Positions 321 through 35,048 of a DNA stretch of 64,000 nucleotides are shown here, piece after piece. Made by a program: the position numbers and the translations under genes. The notes beneath the pieces are model-generated. The model saw nothing but the letters and a program-made list of their open reading frames with translations. It did no database searches and was not told where the DNA came from. How positions within the stretch are numbered: the stretch's first letter is position 1; the number at the start of each line of letters is the position of its first letter. Source of the DNA: Opitutia bacterium (lineage in GTDB: Bacteria; Verrucomicrobiota; Verrucomicrobiia; Opitutales; T3Sed10-336); the NCBI GenBank assembly GCA_050506795.1, contig JBJHCF010000002.1, positions 32,001 to 96,000 on the forward strand, given 5' to 3'.

Positions 321-449
321 CACGACGAACGCCTTTTCGCCTACAAAGAGATCGTCACCCTGGCTCCGAGTCCTCGGCTGGGACGCCCGCCTCCCCAATC
401 ACGCCCTCCAAGGTCTCTTCGCCAGATCAACTGCATCCTCCCGATCCCA

Positions 450-5833: not shown

Positions 5834-7611
5834 ATCCCCACAACCCTCAACTTTCCTCCCTCATCACTCAGCACCTCGACACCTGGACTTCGGCGATCAA
5901 GGCGAAGGCATCTGCCGGACGGGGAGGCGGCAAGAAACAGGAGTTCTACGGCATCAAAAAACTGCGGGAGCTGATCCTGGAGTTGGCGGTGCGGGGATTG
6001 TTGGTGCCGCAGGATCCGAAGGATGAACCGGCAGTAGAATTATTGAGGAAAATTTCAGTGGAGCGCTCCAGTCTTATCCAAGCAGGTAAGCTTAAGAAGC
6101 AGCAGCCTTCTTCGTCGATCAAAGACGAAAACTCGCAATATCCTATCCCGAAGGGATGGGTTTGGACGCGAATTGGGACTATCGGAAATGTTTTCAATGG
6201 GAATAGCATCAGCTCTCGAGTGAAGGAAGAAAAGTATACTGGCATTGAAGGTTACCCATTCATTGCAACAAAAGATGTTGGATACGGCTTCGAAGGCCTC
6301 GATTATGAAAATGGAGTCGCAATTCCCGTAGATGAGGACAAATTCCAAGTTGCACGAAAAGGTTCGGTGCTAATCTGCGCTGAAGGCGGGAGTGCTGGTA
6401 AAAAGTGCGGCATCACAGACAGGGACATTTGTTTCGGAAACAAGCTCTTTGCCAATGAACTGATCGGAGGAATCTCTTCCAAATATATTCTTTCGGTTTA
6501 CTTATCCCCAACGTTCTTCTCAGCCTTTTCAGAGTCAATGACAGGAATCATTGGCGGGATTTCAAAATCGAAATTCGAAACACTGCTTTGCCCACTCCCG
6601 CCTCTCGCCGAACAACACCGGATCGTCGCAAAAGTCGATGAACTGATGGCGCTTTGCGATCAGCTCGAACAGCAGCAAGAGGACAGCGTGCGCACGCACG
6701 GCACCCTGGTGCAAACGCTCCTCGGCACCTTAACGGCCGCCAGCGAACCCGGTCAGCTCGCCCAAGCCTGGCAGCGCATCGCCGCCCACTTCGACCCCCT
6801 CTTCACCACCGAAAGCAGCATCGACCAACTCAAACAAACCATCCTCCAACTTGCCGTCATGGGCAAACTCGTCGAGCAAGATCCGGAAGATGAAAAGGCC
6901 TCTGAACTCCTCAAAAAAATCGCCACCGAAAAAGCCAAACTCATCAAAACCGGAAAAATCAAAAAGCAGAAAACACCGCCACCGGTATCAGATGATGAGA
7001 TGCCCTTCGAAAAGCCATATGGCTGGGAGTTTTGCCGACTTAAAGAATGTGCTTATGTTTTCTCAGGCAATGCTTTCAAAAGCGAAGATTTCAACAACAC
7101 TAATGGCATCAGGGTGATAAAGATCACTAATGCGGGCGTAGGAGAACTAATTGAAACTGAGGAGTTCCTACCTCCGTCTTTCGGAGCCGGATACGAAAAC
7201 TTTCAGGTCATTAAGGGCGACATGATTTTGGCCTTAACAAGGCCTTATATATCTACTGGTCTAAAAGTTAGCATATGCTCTGCAAAATACGACAATGCAC
7301 TATTGAATCAGCGTGTTGCCGCCATTCGTTGTTTTATCGATACGTCGTTCATGTATCAGTATATGCAAAGCACCTACGTTCTTGGCCTTTATCAAAAGAG
7401 ATTCAGCGGCTCAGGTCTCCAGCCCAATTTGAAGATGGCAGATGTAACTGAATTAATCACTCCTGTCCCACCCCTCGCCGAACAACGCCGCATCGTCGCC
7501 AGAGTCAGCGAGCTGATGACCTTGTGCGACCACCTAAAAGCAAATCTTCAGGCAGCGCAAACAACTCAACTCCAGCTCGCCGACAATGTCGTCGAAGCCG
7601 CGATCCGATAG
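5830..7611 (+). CDS. hsdS: Type I RM specificity subunit
   Basis: Two conserved PLPPLAEQ.RIV repeats, IPKGW and KPYGW motifs, two AT-richer variable TRDs, LRELILELAVRG.LVPQDP motif. Confidence 0.95.
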   Translation: MNPHNPQLSSLITQHLDTWTSAIKAKASAGRGGGKKQEFYGIKKLRELILELAVRGLLVPQDPKDEPAVELLRKISVERSSLIQAGKLKKQQPSSSIKDENSQYPIPKGWVWTRIGTIGNVFNGNSISSRVKEEKYTGIEGYPFIATKDVGYGFEGLDYENGVAIPVDEDKFQVARKGSVLICAEGGSAGKKCGITDRDICFGNKLFANELIGGISSKYILSVYLSPTFFSAFSESMTGIIGGISKSKFETLLCPLPPLAEQHRIVAKVDELMALCDQLEQQQEDSVRTHGTLVQTLLGTLTAASEPGQLAQAWQRIAAHFDPLFTTESSIDQLKQTILQLAVMGKLVEQDPEDEKASELLKKIATEKAKLIKTGKIKKQKTPPPVSDDEMPFEKPYGWEFCRLKECAYVFSGNAFKSEDFNNTNGIRVIKITNAGVGELIETEEFLPPSFGAGYENFQVIKGDMILALTRPYISTGLKVSICSAKYDNALLNQRVAAIRCFIDTSFMYQYMQSTYVLGLYQKRFSGSGLQPNLKMADVTELITPVPPLAEQRRIVARVSELMTLCDHLKANLQAAQTTQLQLADNVVEAAIR

Positions 7612-7645
7612 CCACCTTTCAATCACTTGACATCGAGTACCTTCT

Positions 7646-9529
7646 ATGCGCCTCAAGCACATCCACATAAGCGATTACAAGAACCTGAAGAACTTTGACC
7701 TCCATTTCGAGAGCGATAGTTACCTGGATGTATTCGTGGGAAAGAACGGCACCGGAAAATCGAACCTATTCGAGGCTCTTATCGAGATCTTTCACCATCT
7801 CAATGAGTTTAAGTCAAGCGGTTCCAGTATCGACTTCGACTACCGCATCACCTATGAAATCGAGGACAGAAGCACGTCCATCGAGTGGGCCGACAGCCAG
7901 CTCAAGATCAACGGGCGCAATCGCAAGAGTCTCGGCAAGACCCCTATCCCCGACAATATACTGGTCTATTACTCAGGACACAACGATACGGTTTCAACGC
8001 TGATCGGGAACTATCAAGCGGCGTTTCAAAGCAGGATCAAGAGCGCCAATTTCTCCGACTCACGCTATTTTCTTGGCATAGACTCTGCCTACAAACAGAT
8101 CCTCCTCGCAGCCAGTCTCCTCAGACCAAGCGACAGCCCCTGCCGCCGCTTCATTTGCCAGAAGCTCGGCATCGCGGAAACCGGAACCGAACTCCGAGTT
8201 ACACTCAAGCGGCCCTATTACGCGGCTTCTTCCGAATACGACGTCCAAAACAACGACGATGTCGACAAATTCTGGAAACCCCAAGGCATCACGAAAACTT
8301 TTTTGAACCAGCTCACAGCGTGCGCCGCTCCAGCCCCAAGGGGTGGCCGAGTCAGAACTGAAGGCTACCTTTCAGGCGAGGACAGATACATCCTCTACGT
8401 GGACACCGCTAAACTGGTAGAAGAATTCAAAGACGAAGCGTCGCACGAACTGTTCAACCGGTTCGACAATCTGAAGGTCCTCGAGATGCTCGAAGACATT
8501 TCGATCCCCCTCAAGCTCACCAACGGAGAACAAGCCAACACCTCCTTCTTCAGTGATGGCCAGTTCCAATCCGTTTACATTTTCGCGATCACCGAGATCT
8601 TCAAACAGCGCCATTGCCTGACGCTGCTTGACGAGCCCGACTGCTTCCTCCACCCCGAGTGGCAATACGAATTCCTCAGCCAAATATTCGAGATCTCAGA
8701 CGTCGCCACTCAAACCAACCACACCCTCCTCAGTAGCCACAGTGCGTCAACAATCTCATCGAGCAACGACAGCCTCATCAGCCTATTCGAAATAGACGGT
8801 AATACTGTCAAGGTCTCCCGTGTTCCCAAGGGCGAAGTCATCACCTCTCTCTCAGCGGGACTGATTACCTTCTCCGAGTCCGAAGCACGCCTAAATATCC
8901 AGCACGTCCTGAGCAACACGACAGGGCCGGTTCTCTTCACGGAGGGCATCACCGACGAGATCATCTTGGAAATCGCCTGGTCGAAACTGTATCCCGGCGT
9001 AGATCGGCCGTTCGAGATCCAGAATGCGTTTGATTGTGCTTTTTTGGGCAATCTCTTGCTGCGGGACGAACTTTACCAGAATCATTCGAAAAGGGTGTTC
9101 TTCGGTTTATTCGACTTTGATGAGGCATACCAGATGTGGAATCGCCTTAGCGGACCTGATGAAGAAATGGACCCCTGTAAATGCCTTACGAAGAAGCATG
9201 CTAAACATGAGGGTTATGGACTACTTCTTCCGGTTCCAACTGCCTCCTCGGTCAGAAATCAAGTATTAAACCCTACTACTGGTCGTACGTTTAAACATAA
9301 GTCACTGCTAACAACTGAACTGCTTTTTCACGACGTTCCCGGCTTGGAATCACATTTCGCGGTCGACACCGAACGGACGGACAGCTTCAAGAAATTCGTT
9401 GGGAATAAAGTCAATTTCGCAAAACAGATTGTCCCGACCCTTGATCCCGTTCACTTCAAGGTTTTCGAGCCCATCTTCGATTTCATAAAATCCAAAGGCA
9501 ACACACCCGCCACTCGCACATCAACATAA
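7646..9529 (+). CDS. ABC-type ATPase fused to a C-terminal TOPRIM domain (OLD-like architecture)
   Basis: Walker A GKNGTGKS, signature FSDGQ, Walker B LLDEPD, H-switch SSHS; TOPRIM LFTEGITD and FDFD. Confidence 0.85.
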   Translation: MRLKHIHISDYKNLKNFDLHFESDSYLDVFVGKNGTGKSNLFEALIEIFHHLNEFKSSGSSIDFDYRITYEIEDRSTSIEWADSQLKINGRNRKSLGKTPIPDNILVYYSGHNDTVSTLIGNYQAAFQSRIKSANFSDSRYFLGIDSAYKQILLAASLLRPSDSPCRRFICQKLGIAETGTELRVTLKRPYYAASSEYDVQNNDDVDKFWKPQGITKTFLNQLTACAAPAPRGGRVRTEGYLSGEDRYILYVDTAKLVEEFKDEASHELFNRFDNLKVLEMLEDISIPLKLTNGEQANTSFFSDGQFQSVYIFAITEIFKQRHCLTLLDEPDCFLHPEWQYEFLSQIFEISDVATQTNHTLLSSHSASTISSSNDSLISLFEIDGNTVKVSRVPKGEVITSLSAGLITFSESEARLNIQHVLSNTTGPVLFTEGITDEIILEIAWSKLYPGVDRPFEIQNAFDCAFLGNLLLRDELYQNHSKRVFFGLFDFDEAYQMWNRLSGPDEEMDPCKCLTKKHAKHEGYGLLLPVPTASSVRNQVLNPTTGRTFKHKSLLTTELLFHDVPGLESHFAVDTERTDSFKKFVGNKVNFAKQIVPTLDPVHFKVFEPIFDFIKSKGNTPATRTST

Positions 9530-9542
9530 CCAAATTAGCCCT

Positions 9543-11663
9543 ATGAATTTTGAACAGCCCAAGCCAGACTCCAAAAAGTATTCAGATCTCATTTCGAACA
9601 TCGAAAAAGGGATTATCAAGATCCCGAAATTCCAGCGCGAGTTCGTCTGGGGCATCGATAAGACAGCCAAGCTCCTGGACAGCATCTTGAAAGGCTATCC
9701 CATAGGCACTTTCATACTTTGGAAGACGGACGAGCGGATCAATGACATCAAGAATGTCGGCAATCTGGACATCCCCCCGACCCCGGACGGGACGAAGGTA
9801 GAATATGTCCTCGACGGCCAGCAGCGGATCACCTCCTTGTTCGCCGCCTATCGCGGGGCAAAGATCCAAAAGGTTGGCGAGAAGAAGGTGACGGACTACG
9901 GCGATATCGTAGTGAACATCGACGTCGAAATCAGCGATAGCGACGGCCAGGTGATTTCCGCAGAGCCAAATGGCCAGAAATCGGTCTCGTTGAATACAGT
10001 CCTGAACTTCAGCTTCGCCAAGGCCAAGGAGCTGGAATCGCAGTTTAGTGGCGACGAACTTCAGCTTATCGATTCCTATGCGACCGCGTTCCGCACGTAT
10101 GAATTCTCAACGGTCGTCCTGAGAAAAGAAGACATCGATTCTGCGATCGAAGTCTTCACCCGGATCAATACCGGAGGGCAGACCTTGACGCTGTTCGAAA
10201 TCATGTCTGCGAAAACCTACGATGAAGAGCAGAATTTCGACATGACAGTAAAGTGGGCTGACTTCATCAAAGACTTGAAGGACATCAAATACGAAGGGGT
10301 ATCCAGTTCAGTTGTACTGAGCCTTTTGTCCCTAGTCCTCAGCCGCACAAAGGAATGCAAACGCAAGACGATCCTGGCCCTGGAAAAACAAAACATCATC
10401 GATACATGGAGCGATGCCATCTCGGCGCTGAAGGACAGTATCGACTACTTTCGGACAACCTACCGGATTCCAGTCTCGCAGATTCTGCCATACGACGCAC
10501 TCCTGATCCCGTTCGCCTATTTTTTCTACTACAGGAAGGACAAGCCGAGCGGGGTGCAAAAGAAACTTCTTGAGGAGTTCTTTTGGCGGATGTCCCTCTC
10601 CTTCAGATATTCCAGCTCCACGGAATCCAAGCTGGCGCAGGACATCAAACGAATCGAAACGATCCTGGAGGAAAATCGTCCCGACTACTCTGACATCAAG
10701 GTCTATTTGGAATCGCCGCGAGCACTTGTGGAGACGAGCTTCAGCGCCGGGAACAGCTACTGCAAGGCCATCCTGTGCCTGTTGGCTTACCAGGAGCCCA
10801 AGGATTTCAGAGACAACGGTAAGGTGATTCTGGACAATTCCTGGCTCAAGATCGCAAACAGTAAGAACTACCATCACTTTTTTCCCAGAGCCTATCTCAA
10901 GGGGAAGGAGATTCCGAATGGAAACAGCTTGGTGAATATCACGTTTGTCAGTGACCATCTCAACAAACGCAAGATCGGCGCGAAAGCTCCCTCAGTCTAC
11001 ATCGGCGACTTCCACGACGACAACAGCGAAATCAACGTCGCACTAAGGTCTCATTTCATCGACCTCAATGGATTTGGAATCGAGAGTAATGACTACGCCA
11101 CATTTTTGGAGAAGAGATCCCGGCTGATCTATGACGCGCTGAAATCGCGGATCGAGCTGACCCATCAGGAATCCGTAAACGAGGAGTTGGAGCAGCTCAT
11201 AGTCGCGGGAGAAAGTGATCGGGTAGAATTCAAGTCGACTCTCCGCTACGATCTAAGAACCAAGGAAGTGAACAAGAAGCTGGAGTTCGTGATCGCAAAG
11301 ACTATCGCCGCTTTTCTGAATTCCGAAGGGGGAGACCTCCTGATCGGAATCGACGATGATTCAAATGCACTGGGTCTGGAGGACGACTTGAAAACGCTTG
11401 AGAAGCAGAATATCGACGGCTTCGAATTGCATCTGATCGGGATCATCAGGAAATATGTCGGCACCCAATATGGAGGCCACATCAAAATCTTATTCCCGCT
11501 CTACGACAGCCAGCAAATCTGTCGCATTCAGGTATCCCGAAGCGGCACTCCGGTTTTCACGTCATATGAAGGAAAGGACGAATTCTTCGTTCGCACTGGC
11601 TGCTCCTCCCAGCCCCTTAGCCGCGGGGAGCAAAGTATCTACGAGAAGGAACATTGGTCATAG
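9543..11663 (+). CDS. DUF262 + DUF1524-like HNH (GmrSD-like) protein with a C-terminal Schlafen/AlbA_2 domain
   Basis: IPKFQREFVW, LDGQQRITS, FTRINTGG (DUF262); YHHFFPR..NSLVN...LN (HNH); GESDRVEFKS, IAAFLNSEGGDLLIGIDD, FFVRTG (AlbA_2). Confidence 0.88.
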   Translation: MNFEQPKPDSKKYSDLISNIEKGIIKIPKFQREFVWGIDKTAKLLDSILKGYPIGTFILWKTDERINDIKNVGNLDIPPTPDGTKVEYVLDGQQRITSLFAAYRGAKIQKVGEKKVTDYGDIVVNIDVEISDSDGQVISAEPNGQKSVSLNTVLNFSFAKAKELESQFSGDELQLIDSYATAFRTYEFSTVVLRKEDIDSAIEVFTRINTGGQTLTLFEIMSAKTYDEEQNFDMTVKWADFIKDLKDIKYEGVSSSVVLSLLSLVLSRTKECKRKTILALEKQNIIDTWSDAISALKDSIDYFRTTYRIPVSQILPYDALLIPFAYFFYYRKDKPSGVQKKLLEEFFWRMSLSFRYSSSTESKLAQDIKRIETILEENRPDYSDIKVYLESPRALVETSFSAGNSYCKAILCLLAYQEPKDFRDNGKVILDNSWLKIANSKNYHHFFPRAYLKGKEIPNGNSLVNITFVSDHLNKRKIGAKAPSVYIGDFHDDNSEINVALRSHFIDLNGFGIESNDYATFLEKRSRLIYDALKSRIELTHQESVNEELEQLIVAGESDRVEFKSTLRYDLRTKEVNKKLEFVIAKTIAAFLNSEGGDLLIGIDDDSNALGLEDDLKTLEKQNIDGFELHLIGIIRKYVGTQYGGHIKILFPLYDSQQICRIQVSRSGTPVFTSYEGKDEFFVRTGCSSQPLSRGEQSIYEKEHWS

Positions 11664-11936
11664 GGAAGTGGTTCGACGAATTCGAGGTAGCGGAGATTGG
11701 GTCAGGCCAATATTTCATGATTGGGGAGGACAAACTGGAGTCGTCATCAGGCTCCAGTCAAGCTGCGAGCAGTCACCAGTCATGAAACGGGTAATATCAC
11801 CGCCCAGACTTGACGTCCTCCGCTTCCTTAAAAAGGCGTTGGTTGAGCGAATCGCAGTCATGGAACAATCTTTTCGCCCCTACCGTGAAAAACTGAAATT
11901 ATTTGCAAGTAAGGCCAAGTCTAAACCGAAGAAACT

Positions 11937-12812
11937 ATGCTTCTAAAGCTTCTTTATATCCTGCTTTGCTTTGTCCCAGTAATCATCTTTATCGCGTTAC
12001 TTTATCGCGACCGATTAAAGGCACGAACTACCAAGAGGTCACCTTTCACGCACGAGTTGCTCCGGCCTCCGGGGGAAAGTCTCCGGCTCAAAATCCAGGA
12101 AATGGATGAACGTCTTAACGGCCGGATTCTCGTGTTGGTGATAGTCCCAGTAGCATTCGCGTTCACGGGCTTCTCGAATCCTCAATGGCTTGGAAGTGGG
12201 TTAAGCGCCGTGATTGTCATCCCCCTCACCGCAGGCGTTCTCGCTGTAATGTTTGCGACCCTGGGACGCAAAGTGTGGAAACAAATTCAGGACATACACG
12301 ATTACGAACTTGGCTTCCAGGGTGAGCGGTATGTCGCCGAAGAGCTGAACCAATTACTCCGCCAGGGATTTCATGTGTTTCACGATATCCCTTTCGATAA
12401 ATTCAATATTGATCACGTCATTGTCGGAACGCTTGGAGTTTATGCCGTGGAAACCAAAACCCGGCGTAAATTCTCGGCTGCCGAGCGCGGGAAATCAGCC
12501 AACCGTATCCTATTTGACGGTAAGACGCTCACCTACCCTCACGGGAACGACAACCACGGCTTGGATCAGGCCAAACGCAATGCCGACTCCCTCGCCACAT
12601 GGCTGAGCAGCGCGACCGGTGACAAGGTTTCGGTTCATCCGATCTTGACCTTCCCGGGTTGGTGGGTGGAACGAACCGGGACCGGTACCGTGACGGTGGT
12701 CAACCCAAAGGAAATCCCAAAGGTCTTTCCAAAGACCATCCGAAAGCCCCTTGATGACAGCGAGATCCAGCGGATCGTCCACCAACTCGAACAAAAGTGC
12801 CGCACGCAGTAA
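11937..12812 (+). CDS. Membrane-anchored NERD (nuclease-related domain) protein
   Basis: Three N-terminal hydrophobic segments; G.QGE..V, FHDIP, NIDHVIVG, VETK NERD motifs. Confidence 0.85.
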   Translation: MLLKLLYILLCFVPVIIFIALLYRDRLKARTTKRSPFTHELLRPPGESLRLKIQEMDERLNGRILVLVIVPVAFAFTGFSNPQWLGSGLSAVIVIPLTAGVLAVMFATLGRKVWKQIQDIHDYELGFQGERYVAEELNQLLRQGFHVFHDIPFDKFNIDHVIVGTLGVYAVETKTRRKFSAAERGKSANRILFDGKTLTYPHGNDNHGLDQAKRNADSLATWLSSATGDKVSVHPILTFPGWWVERTGTGTVTVVNPKEIPKVFPKTIRKPLDDSEIQRIVHQLEQKCRTQ

Positions 12813-12914
12813 GGCTGACCGGAACCTCTTTACCTCAACCCATTACAGTGGGGAGAGCAGAAGGAATCAGGTTTCGGTTCTTGAGAACCCCTCCCCGCAT
12901 TGTTTCCCGGCGGT

Positions 12915-13222
12915 CGGAATGGCCGGTTTTGGATTCTCCCCGGCGGTCGTACCGAGCGCACAGCGCGACATGCCGCCAATGGCGGCGTTTGAATCGCCAC
13001 CGGGCTGCTCTTTCAGGTGCATGGCGACCGTTCCCCGGTCGATCTCGAATTCCCTGGAGATACGGCATCGCGACCAACCTCACTCGGCCAAAGTTCGTAT
13101 TGTTTTAATAGTAGCCATCTTCAGATGATTTGTCATGACCGGCTAAAAAATCCCGGTTTTGGTAAACCGGCAACTTCCTCGCCGTTTGACTCAAGGTGGC
13201 TGGTTTTAAGTGACCGCTGACA
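12915..13222. mobile_element. Degenerate IS21-family terminal region, no transposase
   Basis: GGTGGCTGGTTTTAAGTGACCGCTGACA at 13195-13222 ends in CA like IS21 ends; related TGGCCGGTTTTGG and TGGCGGCGTTTGAA boxes near 12920-13000. Confidence 0.5.
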
Positions 13223-13241
13223 CGGGAGTGTCATTCTCAAC

Positions 13242-13985
13242 TTACGAACTGGGATCAAACCAAATCGGGTCGGGCGTTAGAGTTGAATCGTTGATTGGGC
13301 AGTCAATCCCCGAATTGTCGACTAGCGAGGTCACACGGGATTTCAGGTCGGAGGCAGCACCTGGGTTCAACCTGATTTCGTCGATCAGGGGCAAACCCTC
13401 GAACCCAGCTCTTTTAAAGGTCGGCCAGTGATCTGGTGGTGCCTCACCTAGTTGCGCAAAGTCATCGCGAATCATAAGATCCACATCCTCGTGAATCATC
13501 CGCAACTCCGCCTCAGATGCGAATTCGGGTCTCTTACGTATTGGTAACTGCCAATGTCCACCGGGCGGAACAGGGTTAGGCCACGGATCGTATATTACTT
13601 CTGCGACGTAGGAGTTCGGGAAAAAGTCGGCGATCGTAGACAGCTTCCCGACCGTCGACCGGATCACCACACCCTCACGGATCACCACACCCTCAGTGAC
13701 TCCACCATAGCTCGGCCACATCAAGGAATCTTCCTGCGGAAAAACATGCCAGCATGAAGCGAAGGCAATATGACGCCAGGCCCAAGCATGTCGTTGGCTA
13801 GCAACTTCAGAGACGGTCGGAACCGATCCAGAAGCGGGAATGTAACCCTCATATTTGTCTGCGAACTGATCTAGCCGCGACAAGTGCAGTTCTTTAGTGG
13901 TGATGAGATCGCTCAAGCGTTTAAACGACATGTAACGCCACACCACCAAATCAGAATCGGGTTCGGGAATCGATTGATGCCTCAT
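13242..13985 (-). CDS. DUF2971-like protein
   Basis: WRYMS, F.DKYEG, ASCWH, MW..YG, GVVIRS, KR.EF..E.ELR motifs; contains an in-frame 18-bp duplication. Confidence 0.75.
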   Translation of the reverse strand: MRHQSIPEPDSDLVVWRYMSFKRLSDLITTKELHLSRLDQFADKYEGYIPASGSVPTVSEVASQRHAWAWRHIAFASCWHVFPQEDSLMWPSYGGVTEGVVIREGVVIRSTVGKLSTIADFFPNSYVAEVIYDPWPNPVPPGGHWQLPIRKRPEFASEAELRMIHEDVDLMIRDDFAQLGEAPPDHWPTFKRAGFEGLPLIDEIRLNPGAASDLKSRVTSLVDNSGIDCPINDSTLTPDPIWFDPSS

Positions 13986-14210
13986 TCGTACAAGTGATTC
14001 TTCTTCAGCGCACCTCGATAAACGAGTGTGTGGCGCTTCGGGGATCGAATGGATCAGTTCTCGATTCTTGACAAGCGTTCATCAGATCTTCCTCAGCACT
14101 TTCGTTCCCGCATTTCCTCCGTAAACAAGACACTTACTACCAACTCACCTTCACCCAGGAAAGCAAAAAACCACCCGCTCTCCTTACCCCTTATTGGGTA
14201 CGCCCTCCCT

Positions 14211-14339
14211 TCAACCGCCCTGCCGGATCCCTAAATACCGCCTCCCCTCCCCCTTCGTCCGTAACTGGAAGTAGTCCCGGTAAATCACCTGCAGCGAATT
14301 CCCTGCCTCCCGCGCCACCCGCACCTCATCCCCGGCCTG
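14211..14339 (-). pseudogene. C-terminal remnant of a tyrosine recombinase/integrase
   Basis: Translates QAGDEVRVAREAGNSLQVIYRDYFQLRTKGEGRRYLGIRQGG*, matching the VA.E.GNS..I...Y tail with the catalytic Tyr; no upstream RH box in frame. Confidence 0.65.
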
Positions 14340-14641
14340 ACATCCGCCATGTCCCCGACGGGGTCAAGGGGTTCCTCTTCGGTTCGACCCTTCATGGTCG
14401 ATCAAGTCCACCGGTTTCCTTGTTTTACGGCCATGGTCGCGCCCCAGGCTCCGGAAAAAACACCTAATTTGCCCGAGAACAATGAACTCCGACCCAGGGT
14501 TGGCCATTGCAATGCCTTTCCTTTTCGCTGGTAAGGCATTGCCCCGCCTTGACTTCAGGTGGTAGTCTCTTCATGTTTCGCTTCATGTTTGGTTTTCCTA
14601 CAGGGGACTTGCACTCCCTTTGCAACGCCCCCAAGCTGGGC

Positions 14642-14700
14642 GCACACAAGCCCAGCCAGCGGACCCGCTTCTGCGGGCCGCTGATGGGCGGCGTTATCAC
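14642..14700 (+). other. Degenerate integron attC-like site
   Basis: CACAAGCCCAGCCAGCGGACCCGC-TTCT-GCGGGCCGCTGATGGGCGGCGTTATCA: long imperfect hairpin with bulges ending in GTT; the AAC of R'' is mutated. Confidence 0.55.
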
Positions 14701-14726
14701 TCACTGACTCTTGCGGTCGTAACGGT

Positions 14727-14927
14727 ATGGCCAACGAAAACGACCACATAGTTATTCCGGAAACCGTCCAGCAGGTTTTGAAGACGTTTCTCGGGGCTAT
14801 ACGAGACGAGCCGGATATCCCGGAAGATGGGATAGCCCGATTGGAAACCCTCCTGCTCAAGGGCGAAACCCCAAAGCCTGAAGACATCAAAACGGCCCTG
14901 TTCGAGCCCTCAGAGGGGGAGACATGA
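14727..14927 (+). CDS. Small acidic helical protein translationally coupled to the downstream ATPase
   Basis: 66 aa; ATGA overlap with 14924; its 3' end carries the GAGGGGG RBS of the next gene. Confidence 0.75.
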   Translation: MANENDHIVIPETVQQVLKTFLGAIRDEPDIPEDGIARLETLLLKGETPKPEDIKTALFEPSEGET

Positions 14928-17395
14928 TTCGAGTCCAGACGCTCCAAATTCAGAATTTTCGCGGGGTGCGCGACCTGACCCTCAACCTCGATGGAAGAAA
15001 TTTTGGGATTTGCGGTCCCAACGGCACCGGCAAGAGCGGTGTTGTCGATGCAATCGAATTCTGTTTGACTGGCGATGTAACGCGTTTGTCAGGCCAAGGC
15101 ACTGCGGAGCTTTGTGTAAAGAACCATGCGCCCCACGTCGACCAGCGCACCCATCCTGGAAAGGCAAATGTCACCATCACCGGCGATATTCCTTCTCTCG
15201 GCAAAGTCGTAACTATTCACCGCTCGGTGAAGAATCCGAAGAAGGTGGAGATCAAACCGGCCGACCCGGCCATAAAGGCCGTTGTCACCCAACTGAAAGC
15301 CCATCCCGAATTCGCGCTCTCCCGCCGGGAGATCGTGAAATACATCATCACCCCGCCAGGTCAGCGCTCGATCGATGTCCAGACGCTATTGCGGCTGGAC
15401 CATATCGAGCGCCTGCGCAAGTCGTTCACAACCTTCAACAACAAACGCAAGGGCGAGGCGGATGAAGCGAAACGCAGTCGCATCAAAGCCGAGACGGACC
15501 TGAAAACCGCCCTGAAACTTGACAAGCTGGACTGCGGGTGTGTCCTCGAAAAGGTCAACGAGAAGCGGAAGATTCTCAGCCTGCCGGAACTGACCGAGCT
15601 GACCAAAAACACCTCCTTAAAGGCCGGCGTCGCTGTGCCTCAGGAAACGAACAAGAAACCGCCCCTTCGCAAGGCTGTCGCGCAGGCCGATCTCAATGCC
15701 CTTCAGACCGCGCTACAAGGCGGCGAACCGACCACGCTCGCTGACAGCCGTCAGGCGACCAAGGACGCTCTCGAAAAACTCCGGGACGATGATGAAGCCC
15801 TGACACTCGCTCGACGTCACGGCTTCATCAAGACCGGTCTTGATCTGATCACCGAAGACGCCTGCCCGCTATGCGATACACCGTGGAAGGCGGACAATCT
15901 ACGCGAGTACCTGCGCCAGAAAATTCTCAGCGCCGAAGAAACCGAAAAGCTTCTCGACACTCTTCGGACCGATATTAACGCCATTTTGGAAACCCTTGCC
16001 GAACGCATCCAGGCCGTTGCGCGCGTCATCCAGTACAGCAAGAGCCTGGAACCACCTGTGCCGAAAACCGAGACGGAAACCTACCTCAAAGAGTTGCAGG
16101 ACGCGGAAACCGCGCTCAAGGAATTTCTTGAAAATCACAGCCGGATTGCCCCCGCAATCACGGCTGTAACCAACTCGTGGTGGTCGCCGGCAGTGCCGCA
16201 GCGTGCACGGATCGATGAATGCCAGGCAGCGGTAAACGCCTTACCCGATACCTCGGCCGCCGACGAGGCGCACGACATACTCAGTGTCGCGCAGGACCGC
16301 TATGAGCGGCTGTTGGAGGCTACGCAGGCGGCAAGAAAGGGCGAGGAGCAGAGCGCTATCGCGCAAAAGGTGCTGGACCACTACAACACAAGCGCCACCG
16401 GAGTCTTGGAAGCGATTTACGACCAAGTCGCCACGGAATTTTCGACCTTCTACCGTGCCATCAATCGCGAGGACGAGGAAAAGTTTGTCGGCAAGTTGAC
16501 GTCCGAGCCGTCCAAGCTGTGCTTTGACGTAGATTTTTACGGCCGCGGCCTTTTTCCACCGGGTGCCTATCACAGCGAAGGTCATCAGGACGCCATGGGG
16601 CTGTGCCTTTACCTGGCTCTGATGAAACACACTCTCGGAGACAAGTTCACTTTTACAGTTCTCGACGATGTACTCATGTCGGTCGATACAGGCCACCGGC
16701 GGGAGGTTTGCCGACTTCTAAAGAAGGAATTTCCCAGCACCCAGTTTGTCCTTACCACCCATGATCGCGTTTGGCTCCGATACATGAAGACCGAAAACCT
16801 AATTTCTCGGAGCCAATCTTCCGGCGGGTGGACGGTCGATTCCGGTCCGCGCGTGTGGGATGACCACGACGTTTGGACAGAAATTCAAGGGGAACTGGTT
16901 AAGGAGAATGTCGCGCAAGCCGCCTGGCTCTTGCGCCGCTATCTCGAATATACAGCCTTCATCCTCGCCGATAACCTCCGTACCCGCATAGAGTTCCGGG
17001 GCGACGGCGTCTATGATCTGTCAGACCTTATGCCTCACGTTTTTAAGAGTTGGCGCAAATGGCTTGAAGACGGTGAGAAATCGGCGATAACGTGGAAACT
17101 CAATGAACAAAAAACCGCTCTTTCCGCAATGCGGGCCAAGGCTAAAGAGCTGGTTGCCAAAACGAATACGGAGCAGTGGGCCATCAACCCGTCCGTTCAT
17201 TTCAACGAATGGACCAATCTGCAGGCCCCTGAATTTCAGGAAGTGGTCGATGCCTTCAAAGCTCTTCTGGAATACCTCCGTTGCGAGAATCCGGCGTGTA
17301 ACTCATACCTCTATATCTCGCCGCGCAAGGGTCAACCTGAGGAACTGCGCTGCAATTGTGGAAAGATCTCAATTAACCTTAAACGTGCGCCCTAG
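14924..17395 (+). CDS. Rad50/RloC-like ABC ATPase with zinc hook, C-terminal HEPN-like domain and Zn ribbon
   Basis: GPNGTGKS, coiled coils around CPLC, HSEGH signature, VLDDV, TTHD; C-terminal RRYLE...INPSVH and CENPAC...CNCG. Confidence 0.8.
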   Translation: MIRVQTLQIQNFRGVRDLTLNLDGRNFGICGPNGTGKSGVVDAIEFCLTGDVTRLSGQGTAELCVKNHAPHVDQRTHPGKANVTITGDIPSLGKVVTIHRSVKNPKKVEIKPADPAIKAVVTQLKAHPEFALSRREIVKYIITPPGQRSIDVQTLLRLDHIERLRKSFTTFNNKRKGEADEAKRSRIKAETDLKTALKLDKLDCGCVLEKVNEKRKILSLPELTELTKNTSLKAGVAVPQETNKKPPLRKAVAQADLNALQTALQGGEPTTLADSRQATKDALEKLRDDDEALTLARRHGFIKTGLDLITEDACPLCDTPWKADNLREYLRQKILSAEETEKLLDTLRTDINAILETLAERIQAVARVIQYSKSLEPPVPKTETETYLKELQDAETALKEFLENHSRIAPAITAVTNSWWSPAVPQRARIDECQAAVNALPDTSAADEAHDILSVAQDRYERLLEATQAARKGEEQSAIAQKVLDHYNTSATGVLEAIYDQVATEFSTFYRAINREDEEKFVGKLTSEPSKLCFDVDFYGRGLFPPGAYHSEGHQDAMGLCLYLALMKHTLGDKFTFTVLDDVLMSVDTGHRREVCRLLKKEFPSTQFVLTTHDRVWLRYMKTENLISRSQSSGGWTVDSGPRVWDDHDVWTEIQGELVKENVAQAAWLLRRYLEYTAFILADNLRTRIEFRGDGVYDLSDLMPHVFKSWRKWLEDGEKSAITWKLNEQKTALSAMRAKAKELVAKTNTEQWAINPSVHFNEWTNLQAPEFQEVVDAFKALLEYLRCENPACNSYLYISPRKGQPEELRCNCGKISINLKRAP

Positions 17396-17663
17396 ATAGG
17401 AAAGGATGGCATATATATCCCACCTGGGGCAAACCAGACGTGTTTCAGTCTTCCCTTCCACGCCTGTCACCGTAGCGACCCTTTCCGGTTTCGACCTGTA
17501 AGCGCGGCACGCAATTCAATGGCTGATCTGATCCCTCTCAGCGGAACGACACCCTGTCCCGCCGTAGGCCACAGGGAGTAGGCGGATCGGTAGCTTCTGT
17601 ATGGTTCTTACTTTGAGACCTCCGGATTTTCACCTGACAAGAAGCGCATACCTTCGCTTGGCG

Positions 17664-17737
17664 CAACAACGTCAAACTGAGGAACGGAATGAAGCTCGGA
17701 GCGAGTAACGGAGTCGTCCTCCCTGACTCTTTCGATC
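17664..17737 (-). other. Degenerate attC-like site directly after the TIR gene stop
   Basis: Minus strand TCGAAAGAGTCAGGGAGGACG...CGTTCCTCAGTTTGACGTTGTTG: GTCA/TGAC and GAGGA/TCCTC arms with bulges and a terminal GTT; a second GTT core (GTTCCAC, 18850-18844) lies just 5' of the TIR ATG. Confidence 0.55.
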
Positions 17738-17738
17738 T

Positions 17739-18833
17739 TTATATTAACGGAGTTGCAGAAGTCCAATGACTCTCAAAGGAATCTACAAGCTCTCGGCCAA
17801 AATCCGCATTAGAGTTCAATACGCTAAACGGTGCCTTTGTCAGTTTCTTAGCTCTACCATTATGATCAAGAGTAACTGGCGAATATATCACGGCGTCATC
17901 TGCAATCATGCATGTCACCGTTCGCTGGATATTATAAAGCCTGATGTGTTCACTTGGATCCAATCCTGCACCTTTTAGGACTCTTTTTGCTTTGGATAGG
18001 CATTCTCCTATCTGCTCCCTGAGGTCATTATCCTGATGGGCACAGTCAATAACCCAATCTGGCGAATCTGGAGACAAAAAAAGCACTCTGAAGTCAAATC
18101 CACACTCTTTCTTCTTTTTCATTTCCTTGAAGAATTCCCAATGCTCTTTGTCGAACAGTTTTCGATTCTTTCTCCCAAAAATGAATAACCTTTCTGAGGC
18201 AATATCTGTTAGAGTTGTGTATAGTCCATGGCTTTCGAAACCGCTCTTGAAGTAAGCTTGGCTGCCCATAACCGGATTGGGCAGTCCATAAGCAGCAAAT
18301 GCCTTAATCACGCTTGCAACTTTTGATCTAGTTCCCGGAATTTCGATACTAGATATCTCCTGCACTTTGGCTTCCAGGGCTGGCCAATTTTTCTCAAACG
18401 CATCATGCAGAATTTCTTTTGGAATAGCTATTTCTCCAAGCTCAACATTTAATGCCTGCAAGAGCTTCAAAACATCTTCCTTTTCGAGTACGGTAGATTG
18501 AAACTGAGTCAATGGGCCGCTCACCTCACTCGGATACATTCCTAGCAACACAGGGCAGACTTTAGAGCTACCGAGGGCTTTGGACAATGCACCCGCCTCA
18601 AACAATAGCCATGATGCCTTGTAGTTCTCAGGTGTGACGCATATTATTCCAATATCGTGCTTCTGTAAGCTCTCGCCGATTTCCGAAGACCAACGCTTTC
18701 CTTTCTCGATGTCGTTAGATGACATCCATGGGTTCGACAATTGTATGACCTGCTGGAGCCACCGCGAAAGGTACTCAGCAAGAGCTTGGCTACGTTTGCC
18801 AGACCAGCTAAGGAATATGTTGATTTTGCTCAT
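17739..18833 (-). CDS. TIR-domain protein with C-terminal PLD-like/DUF5919-like domain
   Basis: IFLSWSG, DIEKG.RW, SWLLFEAGAL (catalytic Glu); C-terminal FRVLFLSPDS, IRLYN, MIADD, FESHW; AT-rich. Confidence 0.85.
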   Translation of the reverse strand: MSKINIFLSWSGKRSQALAEYLSRWLQQVIQLSNPWMSSNDIEKGKRWSSEIGESLQKHDIGIICVTPENYKASWLLFEAGALSKALGSSKVCPVLLGMYPSEVSGPLTQFQSTVLEKEDVLKLLQALNVELGEIAIPKEILHDAFEKNWPALEAKVQEISSIEIPGTRSKVASVIKAFAAYGLPNPVMGSQAYFKSGFESHGLYTTLTDIASERLFIFGRKNRKLFDKEHWEFFKEMKKKKECGFDFRVLFLSPDSPDWVIDCAHQDNDLREQIGECLSKAKRVLKGAGLDPSEHIRLYNIQRTVTCMIADDAVIYSPVTLDHNGRAKKLTKAPFSVLNSNADFGRELVDSFESHWTSATPLI

Positions 18834-29474: not shown

Positions 29475-30283
29475 TCTGGGCAGTGTTCTTTCAGTTGATC
29501 GATGATTTGGGGTCGAGATATTCGGCTCGGGTAAAAGAAAAAAATGAAATCGGATTTCGAAAACTCAGATACCTTTCTCTCCAAGAGACTGTTCTTTGTC
29601 AAAGTAGATTGAAGAAAACAGGGCATCACATGAGTCCGCTTCCAGGGTTTCACCGATGAGCCTACTGGGCAATAGGCGCGGTTTTCCGGAGTTGAAGAGG
29701 TAGACGTCATTAGGATCAATTTAAATATCAATTCCCTGAGAGGCTGGCCGCTGCTCTTCTCCGCGACGCTCGCATTTGGATGAGTATCCGCCCCTCTCCC
29801 CAGAGTCGCCCGCAAACGAGCGCGCCAAGTGAACTACTTCTTGTTTCCGCCGGAGCCCGGCCGACCGAAGCTCCTGAACTTGTCGGCAACCCGGTTGTTC
29901 ACCCCGCTTTTCCGCATCCTACCCTGATAGCTGGTCTACATTTTCCTGGTGGCGTCGGCCAGCCGCCCAGCATGTGGACCAGTTTCTGATGGATGGATCA
30001 GCGCGCTCAGTGCGGGCCGCTCGTTCAGTGCCTGGGTCATGGCGCGGAGTTCCTGCTGGTAGATCGCCGGTGCTGCGAAACGCGGTCCGGGTGAGGACGA
30101 TTCGCCACGGCCCATCGGTTCAGACGGTACTTTTCTGCAATCAGATTCCCAGGATTTCCGTCTGGCCGCCTTCAAGGCGTTCGGGGGGTATCCTGCTTCC
30201 TGTTCTTTCGCCGGAGCTTCGTCGAATCCTAAAACGCTTGTACCTCGCGCCGCAAATTCGGGTCGGCTGAAGGTTGGCGTTAT

Positions 30284-30363
30284 GGATAACCTTGTTTCAC
30301 GCGGTAAGGTTATCCTGATGGTTATCCGGTAGGTTATCCCGGAGGTTAACCGGGAGGTTATTC
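30284..30363. repeat. 12-bp-period iteron-like array (core GGTTATCC)
   Basis: Cores at 30308, 30320, 30332, 30344 (GGTTAACC) and 30356 (GGTTATTC); inverted GGATAACC at 30284 is in register. Confidence 0.8.
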
Positions 30364-30613
30364 GAATTGGGTTCCCATCGTGCATCATGTGCTCCTCATA
30401 CTCCCAACCGACCGGCAGGGACCCGGTGATTGAAGAGCCGCTGAGCCTGGGTCGCCATCCAATGCCGTTCCCCACTGACGAAAGCGCCCTCGCCAATCAG
30501 AAGCTCCCTCGGAAGCATCCACCTGCCGTTCGGGGCTGGCAAGGCCGGTCTCTGGGCAGCAATTTCGACAAGGAAGGATCACTATTCCCGTCCTGGTTCC
30601 GGGTTCCGCTTGT

Positions 30614-30648
30614 GCGTGCTTGACGCGTGGGGCACGCGTCAAGCACGC
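30614..30648. repeat. Perfect 16-bp inverted repeat with a 3-nt loop
   Basis: GCGTGCTTGACGCGTG-ggg-CACGCGTCAAGCACGC. Confidence 0.9.
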
Positions 30649-30971
30649 GTCGGCCGGGTGTGGTTCTGCACTTCGCTTCGACAATCCTGTCGATCCCGTC
30701 AACGAGGCTTCTGGCGGTGGCAGCGAAATAGACCTCTTCTTGCCCCCCAGTGAGTCCGGGGAAAAATTTTTTTGAATTCATTTCCGGGCCAGTCTCCGGG
30801 CTGCGGTCGCGGGGTCGCTGGGAAATACCCTCTTTTCACCAACAATCCTCACCACAAAAACACATCCCAAGAACCAACCCGCAAGCACTCCAATCCCCCC
30901 ACCAGGGGCAATATCTAAAGCGTTTTGCCATTAAGCCACTGATTTCGAGATGTTTGCCAAAAACATTTCGG

Positions 30972-32324
30972 TTATTCGCCAACTATTGGACGGAACCCCA
31001 TTTTTCGGTGGTAAAATTCATCCATGACCCGCCTTAATTCCTCCTTCTGGGAAACAGGGACGATGAATGAGTCGTGACAGGTAAGGCACGGAAATCCTTT
31101 TTGGGCGAAATGGGACAGGATCTCAATGGCAATTTCGGATTCGATCCGCATCAGAACCACGCCGTAATCTTTGCAGAATCTGTGCTTGATTCTGTGGTGA
31201 ATCTTCAGCGCAAGGACATAGATTTGTGCGAACGACAATCCAGTCTCCTTCCAAGCCGAATAGAGGTCTACTGCCTTACGAAGAGATTTCCCGGATTTTT
31301 CGGTTCCATCCCCATTCTTGAATCTCATCGCCTTATTGCAGGCGTTGATCGCGCGCGTTCTACTCCGGACATTGATCGCAGCGTTGATCAACTTTTTCGC
31401 CAATGCTCTCTTTTCTGGTGTGGTCCTGGTGTCCCAAAGAGCATAAGGGTCGTCGCTAAAGGGAATTTTCTCCAGGTGATATAGCATCCGAGGGTGCATC
31501 CCACTGTAATCCAACTCGGCGGATTTCTCTCCGTCGAACTTGATGGTTTTCCGCTGGTGTTTGGACAGATTTTGATGTCCGTATTTCGTCGTATGAAGCC
31601 GACCATTCCACTCCCAATGCTGGGTGAATATTGCGCGGTGAATCGGACGTAGCTGTCGCTGGCTTTTCGAATGCCAAGGCCTATAGACTATCGTCGATGT
31701 GGAATTGACCTCGTTGATCAGAGTGAGTTTCAATTGTGCTTCTGTTGCTATCGGTTTGCTCCAATCAACCGGAAGATTCGTCTTTGCCTGGCGGTCACGC
31801 AACGAAACGTATACTTTCTCCACCTCTGGATCGAATTCCCATGGATCAATCGAACCAAAAAGCTCAACAATTGGAGAAAGCGGTAGCAAGCGACTCATCT
31901 TCCGACTCCCTCTTGGACTCCGGTGCTCGCGAAAGAGCCCTTCGTTGACGGCACTATCCACAACTTGTATGTAGATTCGCTTCGTGGTACCGGTATTCCG
32001 CGAATACATAATGCAGCCATTAGCCCAAACCGCTCGCTTGGCCGCAAGAATTAGATTCCGGAAGAAAGCTTGTTTTTCATCGCCTTTCTTCCCCCTCGGC
32101 CTCAGCTTGGCGAACAGACTATCAGCCTGATCGCGCGTTTCCATGGGTACGTCTTCCTTGAGATCAATCGAAACAGCCGGGAGCTTGTTGTAAACGGTAT
32201 AAGGCGGAATCTCCCGAGCCCTTTTATCCCAAGCAATCGGACAGGTAAATGGAGGGCAGGCCGTCCCCTTCCCTCCGCTAACCGTTTCCTCCCGCACGCC
32301 GAGGCTGCTTTCCTTCTGGGCCAT
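30972..32324 (-). CDS. Family-A (PolA/T7-type) polymerase-fold protein without exonuclease domains
   Basis: GRL...QNL..R, motif A ELDYSGMHPRMLY, motif B KRALAKK, LMRIES, motif C LTCHDSFIV. Confidence 0.75.
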   Translation of the reverse strand: MAQKESSLGVREETVSGGKGTACPPFTCPIAWDKRAREIPPYTVYNKLPAVSIDLKEDVPMETRDQADSLFAKLRPRGKKGDEKQAFFRNLILAAKRAVWANGCIMYSRNTGTTKRIYIQVVDSAVNEGLFREHRSPRGSRKMSRLLPLSPIVELFGSIDPWEFDPEVEKVYVSLRDRQAKTNLPVDWSKPIATEAQLKLTLINEVNSTSTIVYRPWHSKSQRQLRPIHRAIFTQHWEWNGRLHTTKYGHQNLSKHQRKTIKFDGEKSAELDYSGMHPRMLYHLEKIPFSDDPYALWDTRTTPEKRALAKKLINAAINVRSRTRAINACNKAMRFKNGDGTEKSGKSLRKAVDLYSAWKETGLSFAQIYVLALKIHHRIKHRFCKDYGVVLMRIESEIAIEILSHFAQKGFPCLTCHDSFIVPVSQKEELRRVMDEFYHRKMGFRPIVGE

Positions 32325-32454
32325 CCTTTAACTCACACAATCCTCCTACTGTATAGTTCAATTGAGGCAGTCTTTATTCAGGCAACAAGCATCCACGATT
32401 TCAAGCTCCAAAACAAATAAGAAACTGTCAATTGTGCCACAGCCGCAAGGGAGA

Positions 32455-32548
32455 CTCATTGTGGGCTCATTGAACGCTACGTGAATGCTCACTGAAGAAT
32501 CAATGAGCATTCACTCTTCGCAGTTGATTCACCTGATCAGCTCATTCA
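32455..32548. promoter_or_regulatory. Cluster of GCTCA(T/C)TGA-like boxes including a 15-bp hairpin upstream of the polymerase-like gene
   Basis: Boxes at about 32455, 32465, 32487, 32500 (inverted) and 32540; GTGAATGCTCACTGA-agaa-TCAATGAGCATTCAC at 32481-32514. Confidence 0.6.
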
Positions 32549-33434: not shown

Positions 33435-33476
33435 CTCCCGCATGGCCGCGGCTGCGCGGGAGCGCCGCCCTCCACG
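33435..33476. repeat. Internally deleted copy of REP-like family B
   Basis: 13-mer CTCCCGCATGGCC and 23-mer GCGCGGGAGCGCCGCCCTCCACG identical to 39232-39244 and 39320-39342. Confidence 0.75.
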
Positions 33477-33602
33477 AAGAGGAAGCGCGATCCCGATTCG
33501 GTTTCTCAAGCGATGAACCAGCTTAACCGAGTGCCATTCCCTCTAACCCGCTATTTAATGCGAATCATCGAGTTTCAAAAAACTCAAAAAACCTCTTGAT
33601 CA

Positions 33603-33621: not shown

Positions 33622-33701
33622 GAAAGAAAACAGAATTGAAGTCTTTGCCTCAACCAAAACACCAACCGCCCGGCACCAGGGCGTTAAAGTCGGCAATCGC
33701 A

Positions 33702-34163
33702 ATGGACATCACAGTCAAAGAGCTGAAACTGAGCTACCGGGAAACCGGCGAAACGATGAAGGCGGGCAAGATCAACAGCCCAGAGGCAGCAGCCCAATAT
33801 ATGGCAGGAGCATTCGACGACCACCCGGATCAAGAGCATTTCTTCGTCCTCCTGGTTGACCGGAAAAATCAGGTCAAGGCCCGTCACTTGGTAACAGTCG
33901 GAACGCTGACCAGCAGTCTCGTTCATCCTCGCGAGGTATTCCGGGCCGCAATTGTGGGGGGAGCCGCTTCCATTATTGCGATTCACAACCACCCCAGCGG
34001 CGACCCGAGCCCGAGCAGCGCGGACATTCAGGTGACCCGTCAACTTCGAGAAGCGGGCAAAACCGTTGCCATCGATCTCCTCGATCATGTTATTATCGGG
34101 ACCAAGGAAAGTGACCCGAATCAAAAGGGATTCTACTCTTTCAAAGAATCCGGACTCCTCTGA
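33702..34163 (+). CDS. radC: RadC-like JAB/MPN domain protein (short, mobile-element type)
   Basis: QEHF, GTLTSSLVHPREVF, HNHPSGDPSPS.AD, LLDHVIIG; ATG 33702 preferred over TTG 33636. Confidence 0.92.
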   Translation: MDITVKELKLSYRETGETMKAGKINSPEAAAQYMAGAFDDHPDQEHFFVLLVDRKNQVKARHLVTVGTLTSSLVHPREVFRAAIVGGAASIIAIHNHPSGDPSPSSADIQVTRQLREAGKTVAIDLLDHVIIGTKESDPNQKGFYSFKESGLL

Positions 34164-34426: not shown

Positions 34427-34590
34427 GCTGGAGCGATGCCAAGACCGAAGCCGCCCGTTTAATGAAAGAGATGCGAGGGAAATACCCGCTCCCCTTCGTC
34501 CGCATGGTTGTGGACGCCCTCAAGCGTGAGCTCCGAGCCGCCGAGAGCGAAGAGAAACGTCAGGCAAAGGAATCAGACGATCAAGAATGA
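34423..34590 (+). CDS. Small hypothetical helical protein (55 aa, absent from the ORF track)
   Basis: AAGGA RBS then GTG; MSWSDAKTEAARLMKEMRGKYPLPFVRMVVDALKRELRAAESEEKRQAKESDDQE*; GTGA and ATGA overlaps on both sides. Confidence 0.65.
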   Translation: MSWSDAKTEAARLMKEMRGKYPLPFVRMVVDALKRELRAAESEEKRQAKESDDQE

Positions 34591-34826
34591 GCCCTGAAGA
34601 ATACCGCATAGCCCGGGAAGCCCGCGGAACCCAGATGGCGGTCGCCAAGAAACTCGGCGAACACTGGCGGACCATTCAACGCCGGGAAGCCGGAGACACC
34701 CGCATCACCCGATCAGCCGAGCTCGCCCTGCTCTCAATCCGGAAACGCCGCAAAAGCCACCCCGGCACCAGTACCGGCCCATTTTCCGGGAAAGCCTCCA
34801 CTCGTTCCTCTAAATCAACCCCTTAG
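34587..34826 (+). CDS. XRE/Cro-type HTH protein
   Basis: MSPEEYR.ARE..GTQ..VAKKLG...RTIQRREAG pattern. Confidence 0.75.
   Translation: MSPEEYRIAREARGTQMAVAKKLGEHWRTIQRREAGDTRITRSAELALLSIRKRRKSHPGTSTGPFSGKASTRSSKSTP
34813..34825 (+). promoter_or_regulatory. IHF-binding consensus next to the att core
   Basis: AATCAACCCCTTA matches WATCAANNNNTTR. Confidence 0.55.
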
Positions 34827-34840
34827 GAATTGCATCCAGG

Positions 34841-34897
34841 GGACTTAAAATCCGTTCCTTGCAAAAGGGTGAGGGTTCGAGTCCCTCTCCGGGCACC
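34841..34897 (+). pseudogene. 3' half of tRNA-Leu(TAA), probable attR direct repeat
   Basis: GGA-CTTAAAA-TCC anticodon loop, long variable arm, T-arm GAGGG-TTCGAGT-CCCTC, acceptor 3' strand TCCGGGC-A-CC; no matching 5' acceptor strand. Confidence 0.85.
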
Positions 34898-34925
34898 GCC
34901 TCTGTTTATGCGGCATACAGGCGCT

Positions 34926-35000
34926 GTGACCCAGCCATTCCTGTCTGGTCGTCCCAAACCTCGGACTCCGGGACATCGCAGGCAGGAATGCCTGGGTCAC
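34926..35000. repeat. Inverted pair of REP-like family A
   Basis: GTGACCCAGCCATTCCTGTCTGG ... GCAGGCAGGAATGCCTGGGTCAC. Confidence 0.75.
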
Positions 35001-35048
35001 CCCGGACCATCGCGGTCTGTAACCGTCTCCAGGTCAGAACGTTGGGCG

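Follow-up and report, generated by a model that had tools for sequence, protein, structure and literature searches.

The window analysed here is a stretch of 64,000 nucleotides from an Opitutia bacterium (contig JBJHCF010000002.1, positions 32,001 to 96,000). It carries, on its minus strand, an open reading frame (ORF) of 450 aa at 30972..32324, whose product combines a winged-helix domain with a minimal polymerase of the family-A/T7 RNA polymerase (RNAP) type and resembles the TV-Pols, an assignment based on the ORF itself, its fold, its conservation and a match to PHROG 4756. The N-terminal winged helix (residues about 57-160; 31845..32156, minus strand) is presumed to recognise a site. The polymerase core (30975..31847, minus strand) contains a thumb, a GR hairpin (R242), motif A (D272 and H277), an RxxxK helix (R306, K310 and N318), D395 and an HDSF motif (residues 417-420). 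Past the stop codon, on the same strand, lie an IHF-consensus site at a distance of 27 nt (30932..30944), an AAAC-N4-TTAG(A/T)TA..TG element (30909..30926) found by motif discovery, and a G/T-rich, C-poor tract (30821..30905; 37 G, 31 T, 11 A and 6 C in 85 nt). The first may be part of an origin or start site, the second is a candidate site of binding, melting or initiation, and the third a candidate primer or R-loop region. The reading we prefer, to which we give a little under an even chance, is that the polymerase is a site-specific initiator-primase, a single chain that starts replication of an integrative element in the manner of ColE2 Rep.

Fold and active site of the polymerase

The original prediction for this DNA had described the 450-aa frame, its DYSGMHPR, RALAKK and HDS motifs, and a polymerase fold lacking an exonuclease domain. 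The motifs are all present, and the fold is borne out by a confident AlphaFold model (pLDDT 89.6). Foldseek places this model in family A (E about 1e-5 against PolA-type enzymes), and structural comparison with VIA gives a Z of 14.0 against apicoplast Pol (root-mean-square deviation 3.6, 238 aligned residues), 12.6 against the single-subunit yeast mitochondrial RNAP (mtRNAP) and 11.2 against T7 RNAP, the best structural scores being those of PolA enzymes. The fingers region is much reduced. Residues about 57-160 match winged-helix proteins with a VIA Z of 5-6.5, both in the whole model and when the domain is folded alone; these middling scores name a common, generic fold and no specific family. 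Because these residues form the winged helix and the core begins at about residue 160, the model has no room for an exonuclease domain. PDB sequence searches with the protein and with two profiles matched no polymerase, and no match in Pfam, NCBIfam or PADLOC names the protein (in Pfam, neither DNA_pol_A nor an RNA_pol profile).

Conservation was computed over 158 sequences of at least 380 aa, from 177 collected. Residues were placed in register by motif rather than by a printed structural alignment, using the Klenow and T7 residue numbering. R242 (100%), D272 (99%), R306 (98%), K310 (99%), N318 (97%), H417 (99%), D418 (96%) and S419 (96%) are conserved, including the two catalytic aspartates (D272 and D418) whose conservation the original prediction had made decisive. 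Where PolA proper has E710, F762 and HDE, this family has His (H277; 89%), Asn or Leu (N314; Asn 50%, Leu 35%) and HDS (96%). The equivalents of E710 and F762 discriminate against ribonucleotides, and CCPol keeps both (PMC7581432). Features reminiscent of T7-type RNAPs are the HDSF motif, D395 and the GR-L-Y/H hairpin. At the gate position, T7 and mitochondrial RNAPs have Gly, and their RxxxK helix ends in Tyr (Tyr-Gly at the end of the O helix in T7-like enzymes), whereas the 450-aa family has His and Asn at these places. An active site without the PolA ribonucleotide gate and with RNA-polymerase-like motifs favours the use of NTPs, as predicted from these residues.

The same motifs would suit a miniature single-subunit RNAP dedicated to transcription. 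In such an enzyme the winged helix would replace the promoter-recognition parts of T7 RNAP, the downstream element would be a promoter driving genes or RNA beyond it, and the paralogues found in phages would serve different promoters. This is unlikely in our view, even though mtRNAP and T7 RNAP come close to PolA in structural score and lytic phages have two to three paralogues with no gap downstream. T7 RNAP uses a large N-terminal domain for processive elongation; the present protein, at 450 aa and with its much reduced fingers, is without it. Moreover, no conserved gene follows the element, and the tract after it is low-complexity sequence and not a conserved RNA.

Another possibility is that the enzyme uses dNTPs to replicate the element itself, either as a DNA prim-pol or as a replicase; this was predicted for TV-Pols (PMC2579912), and CCPol-MP does so in making DNA primers (PMC7581432). 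The PolA enzymes, as best structural matches, agree with this. We nevertheless consider it improbable, since the ribonucleotide-excluding Glu and Phe that CCPol keeps are here His and Asn/Leu, a proofreading domain is missing, and the expected partners do not recur. In a scan of up to four ORFs per side in 37 loci carrying family genes (long ORFs skipped; loci are numbered L001 onwards), no conserved partner gene (helicase, SSB or MP) was found among the neighbours, and a helicase-like gene was directly adjacent in only one locus (L009).

The downstream site and the flanking repeats

The whole window has four matches to the IHF consensus against 2.6 expected. The match at 30932..30944, which the original prediction had listed, is present but, alone, at chance level, and it gains weight only because the relatives show enrichment downstream of the gene. 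A set of 91 usable loci was reduced to 60 at 65% identity, 36 of them non-viral. Exact IHF matches within 250 nt past the stop codon occur in 7 of the 36, where shuffling gives 1.3 ± 1.2. Neither the upstream regions (1 of 28) nor the viral loci (1 of 24) show an excess. Allowing one mismatch in non-coding loci that were fetched later gave 9 of 33 against 4.9, which is not convincing.

Motif discovery in the 36 non-viral loci returned AAAC-N4-TTAG(T/A)TA with a score of 267, compared with 227-233 in six shuffled sets that were run with fewer restarts. The element pattern matches 14 of the 36 (1.7 ± 1.1 in shuffles), mostly 42-64 nt past the stop codon. Its TTAG(A/T)TA..TG part lies about 13 nt beyond the IHF-like site, and in an alignment of 12 chosen loci the spacing from the IHF-like box to TTAG is constant within 1 nt in the window and in L002, L004, L005, L032, L033 and L036, which span two clades of about 25-30% protein identity. 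In L212, which was newly fetched and belongs to the second clade, the element lies where expected, at +51. In many relatives the element is followed by a strand-biased, low-complexity tract; in most second-clade loci this tract is repetitive and rich in G, and in some relatives its bias is the opposite, towards C. The IHF-plus-element block is doubled as a direct repeat downstream of the gene in L007, L034, L036, L037, L040 and L042, and the two blocks flank the low-complexity tract in several cases.

In a third clade, from viral contigs, an IHF-like box is followed by a different element, of the CACATATG/TACAGATG type, that ends 22-23 nt later. This layout was seen in L172, L173, L175, L176, L182 and L188, about 20-100 nt past the stop codon, and comes with a purine- or pyrimidine-rich run. 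The recurrence of the layout with a different sequence suggests that the putative sites are clade-specific and share one common arrangement.

A stop codon followed by an IHF box and then by an end at a fixed distance is typical of element ends. The IHF-plus-element block might thus be the recombination or transposition end of a small gene cassette, the polymerase serving in gap filling or replicative transposition, or perhaps lying idle here. There is an IHF match at the attachment site of the surrounding island as well (see below), and resolvases are frequent neighbours of family genes. However, the element follows the polymerase clade and not the type of recombinase, and no inverted or direct counterpart of it was found upstream of the gene, and we rate this alternative to a replication origin as quite improbable.

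The IHF site is the only one of the flanking features in the original prediction that co-occurs with homologs; the boxes, the hairpin and the 12-bp-period array do not, and most of these repeats are incidental. The hairpin, a perfect 16-bp inverted repeat at 30614..30648, and the array, at 30302..30361, exist as described. The GCTCAYTGA boxes upstream of the gene, said to be five, comprise three exact copies, which are all the exact matches in the window, and one copy with a single mismatch. They form an operator-like cluster at 32465..32548, in which two boxes make a 15-bp inverted repeat. All three features are private to this locus: the box cluster is found upstream in 1 of 95 loci, the array core occurs in high number in 1 of 105, and, in the 700 nt downstream, the longest perfect hairpin arm measures 16 bp here, with none of the 35 other loci exceeding 11 bp. 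As none recurs at relatives, they were rejected as family-level iterons. The predicted folding of the upstream region does not stand out from that of shuffled sequences (z -1.4). The array is contained, as IT-rich four-residue repeats, in a possible 150-aa ORF (29936-30388, minus strand) that has a GAGGAG ribosome-binding site and no Pfam or Atlas match.

The tRNA-Leu island and the wider family

A whole-genome comparison showed that 82 bp of the tRNA-Leu 3' part are repeated (97.6%), with one copy outside the window (G000:C2:28450-28531) and the other at 34841-34922. The two copies bound an island of 38,473 bp, with 53% G+C compared with 59% for the genome. The right attachment site (34813..34922, plus strand) consists of an IHF-consensus match (34813-34825) and the right-hand repeat. 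The left end carries a tandem pair of divergent tyrosine integrases (G000:C2:28613-31120; L108:6614-9121), whose Pfam matches (E 2e-5 and 3e-4) fall short of the curated cut-off; a 100-bp piece of the end of the second integrase gene is repeated at window 326-425. The right end is made up of the polymerase gene, which stands alone with gaps of at least 190 nt, a gene for a RadC-like JAB protein (33636..34163, plus strand; PF04002, E 4e-41) and one for a small helix-turn-helix protein (34587..34826, plus strand; weak match to HTH_3, E 0.006). RadC-like proteins are common cargo of mobile islands, and such a gene also adjoins a family relative in L051.

Defence-type cargo named by Pfam extends over 799..18833, on either strand, and includes type I restriction-modification (R-M), YhcG, an AAA_15 ATPase, GmrSD-Schlafen, NERD, an SMC-like ATPase and TIR. 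In the GmrSD-Schlafen protein (9543-11663, plus strand) a GmrSD N-terminal domain is fused to a Schlafen/AlbA_2 domain, and the TIR protein (17739-18833, minus strand) is a stand-alone one. Between this cluster and the polymerase gene lies the gene of a secreted multi-domain protein of 3,185 aa with fn3, PKD, Ig and beta-helix domains (19917-29474, minus strand). As had been noted for the vicinity of the gene, the island ORFs that were scanned include no recognised primase or replicative helicase; the motor of the type I restriction system and the two ATPases were taken as defence cargo and not counted as replicative helicases. Rfam found only a tRNA-Gln in the window and nothing real at 29.4-35.2 kb, and a promoter and terminator scan gave results at chance level. 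A dispersed REP-like repeat of about 90-110 nt occurs at 33435-33548, 34926-35003 and 39174-39377, with one copy inside the island, and has dozens of relatives across the genome.

With such cargo, the polymerase could be a nucleotide-polymerising defence effector of the island, as the original prediction had proposed among other roles. We found no support for this here and think it very improbable. A distance of 12 kb separates the gene from the defence cluster, and its neighbours at the island end are the RadC and helix-turn-helix genes; relatives are carried by lytic phages, and 30 family members gave no PADLOC match. UG9 reverse transcriptases (RTs) have been reported together with a family-A polymerase (PMC9226505), but, unlike that RT-PolA system, the window locus has no adjacent RT. 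A distant relative, L122, does share an open frame with a UG/Abi-like RT; this frame of 900 aa (L122:1-2700, plus strand; RVT_1, E 4e-12) runs off the edge of the locus and is possibly a fused UG9-type RT-PolA system. Yet there was no RT relative in the present genome (tblastn with the L122 RT) or in the other 203 sequences searched, and no Pfam match of the window ORFs to an RT family.

The polymerase had been called an orphan, which it is not. PHROG 4756, of unknown function, matches it over its full length at E 3e-43 (TM 0.5-0.7), as well as 30 of 30 alignment members, and includes ICP1 gp100 and gp150 of Aeromonas phage 4L372D. A profile search returned 9,752 representatives, each standing for a cluster, at E<=0.001, and 3,974 at 1e-30, and the family is therefore very large. 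Its occurrence is sporadic: 2 of 61 relatives and 20 of 401 genomes in the phylum have a family gene, and around three other carriers it was found in 1, 6 and 2 of 401 genomes (the counts include the centre genomes). An integrase or resolvase was present in 13 of 25 dereplicated non-viral loci of at least 5 kb; the queries came from the same loci, and Pfam independently names ten of the 13.

ICP1-like, Barba and 80-140-kb lytic phages carry one to three divergent, unannotated paralogues, and phage members of PHROG 4756 often exist in multiple copies and, unlike the window gene, without the downstream site. ICP1 gp100 (L109:8179-9846) lies at 53-55 kb and the reported peak of the ICP1 theta origin near 60 kb, a proximity too loose to count. 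The family genes of L119 and L120 contain in-frame stops (four TAG and one TGA in L119, six TAG in L120) and are either pseudogenes or phage DNA in which TAG is recoded. An int-alpA RNA (RF02996), a leader known from integrase and AlpA genes, immediately precedes the polymerase gene in 2 of 20 loci scanned (L014:675-742 and L027:2965-3029), and leaders resembling it are seen in L004, L005, L007, L029, L034, L036 and L049. The window gene has the GCTCAYTGA boxes instead.

A candidate initiator-primase of integrative elements

The module is not undescribed, as had been thought, since a matching architecture and context were published in 2008 under the name TV-Pol (Iyer, Abhiman and Aravind; PMC2579912). 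TV-Pols are minimal cores of 400-600 aa without a nuclease, predicted to be primase-polymerases; a subset has an uncharacterised N-terminal helical domain (the alternative being a D5 helicase), and the neighbours, in R-M-rich islands, include lambda-type integrases, resolvases, transposases and R-M genes (PMC2579912). The present enzyme shares with them the helical thumb, the beta-hairpin with Arg (R242), the palm with two Asp (D272 and D418), the RxxxK fingers (R306-K310), the lack of a fused or linked nuclease, an N-terminal domain, integrase or resolvase neighbours and an island with type I R-M. It is thus probably of TV-Pol type and not categorically new. The fold of the N-terminal domain, here a winged helix, the cis site and the nucleotide preference are all absent from PMC2579912. 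That paper names phage Ma-LMM01, in which our first genome-level searches gave no family match. Its top profile match is gp030, a weak one (E 0.037; hhalign E 0.002, probability 13), which adjoins a transposase pair and shows the hairpin, a motif A whose gate residue is His, and a helix ending in INGA. We infer that gp030 is the TV-Pol member meant in 2008; gp134 and gp178 of the same phage were tried as a link and did not match. The TV-Pol-D5 replication protein of the virophage Zamilon (E 7e-4, TM 0.25) is no closer than ordinary PolA.

In the passages covered, CCPol-MP of SCCmec is the sole characterised enzyme among those listed as TV-Pols. It too is an exonuclease-less family-A core on an integrative island, and it primes de novo (PMC7581432, PMC10061031); CCPol has been placed near CHEAP PolAs (PMC10201439). 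CCPol differs from the 450-aa polymerase in that it needs the MP/SSB partner and the Cch2 helicase, keeps the gate and has no N-terminal domain. T7-type and mitochondrial RNAPs, which prime replication (PMC2579912), share the core fold (Z 11-12.6), the HDSF form of motif C and the loss of the PolA gate; the present enzyme is about half their size, and a winged helix replaces their N-terminal domain. Closest in its proposed way of working is ColE2 Rep, which binds its origin and makes a short RNA primer that host Pol I extends and which has no helicase of its own (PMC4538821). It differs in its catalytic fold (AEP, where the present enzyme has family A/T7) and in serving a free plasmid instead of an integrated island.

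With this in mind, one may propose how the initiator-primase would act. The winged helix would bind the IHF-bent site past the stop codon, the AT-rich element would open, and the polymerase core would make a short primer, probably of RNA because His and Asn/Leu stand in place of the Glu and Phe by which PolA excludes ribonucleotides. This primer would run into the strand-biased tract, to be extended by host Pol I and the replisome as with ColE2 Rep, which would explain why neither a helicase nor an exonuclease is needed. In this way the excised island could be kept as a replicating circle. The best reading, close to one of the roles proposed at the outset, is that of a polymerase which stands alone and uses a cis site to prime or initiate for the island, although the cis site differs from those first imagined and adjoins the IHF match.

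Several observations weigh against such a role. The polymerase folds do not separate DNA from RNA polymerases, the Z values of the model being close, and primase activity, predicted from fold, sequence and context, is putative. The element pattern was written after the loci had been seen and is thus post hoc. It is absent from all 16 same-phylum loci of other clades and from 31 of 34 further loci, including the close relative L141; the three with it are L212, which is new, L033, seen before, and L209, where it is probably a chance match. Of the eight members of the window's own clade, four have the element, all inside a subclade of five, and L141, L003, L028 and L063 are without it. The combined test of IHF site plus element gives a modest result, with 8 of 36 loci where shuffles give 2.9 and 8 of 45 where they give 2.3, and single shuffles reach 9; none of 115 element matches in viral contigs has a family gene within 600 nt. 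Relatives were found in 3-4 of 72,556 plasmids, few for the initiator of a free replicon, and those in lytic phages often come as two to three paralogues with another gene directly downstream. Finally, in contigs of the probable source run there is no depth step at the island end, where depth is flat (13.1-14.2 inside and 14.6 outside), and no excision joint; these depths are contig means in which no amplification is visible, yet they are not a test of copy number.

A wider formulation, which we offer more tentatively, is that members of this very large family, with a winged helix and a T7-type core in 450 aa, begin making RNA just past their own gene, at a site that is specific to the clade and assisted by IHF. 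They would then represent a third origin-specific primase fold, after DnaG and AEP, as well as the smallest single-subunit RNA polymerase with site specificity, and in integrative islands and satellites they would take the place of the primase-helicase module. In our literature search, which covered sources other than subscription journals, no published account of either the winged helix or the downstream site was found. Thousands of clusters belong to this family, which has no Pfam or NCBIfam model and has so far been the subject of just the 2008 prediction. New handles on it are its winged helix, an active site resembling that of RNA polymerases, and the candidate cognate site, through which the function of a huge unstudied family becomes directly testable.

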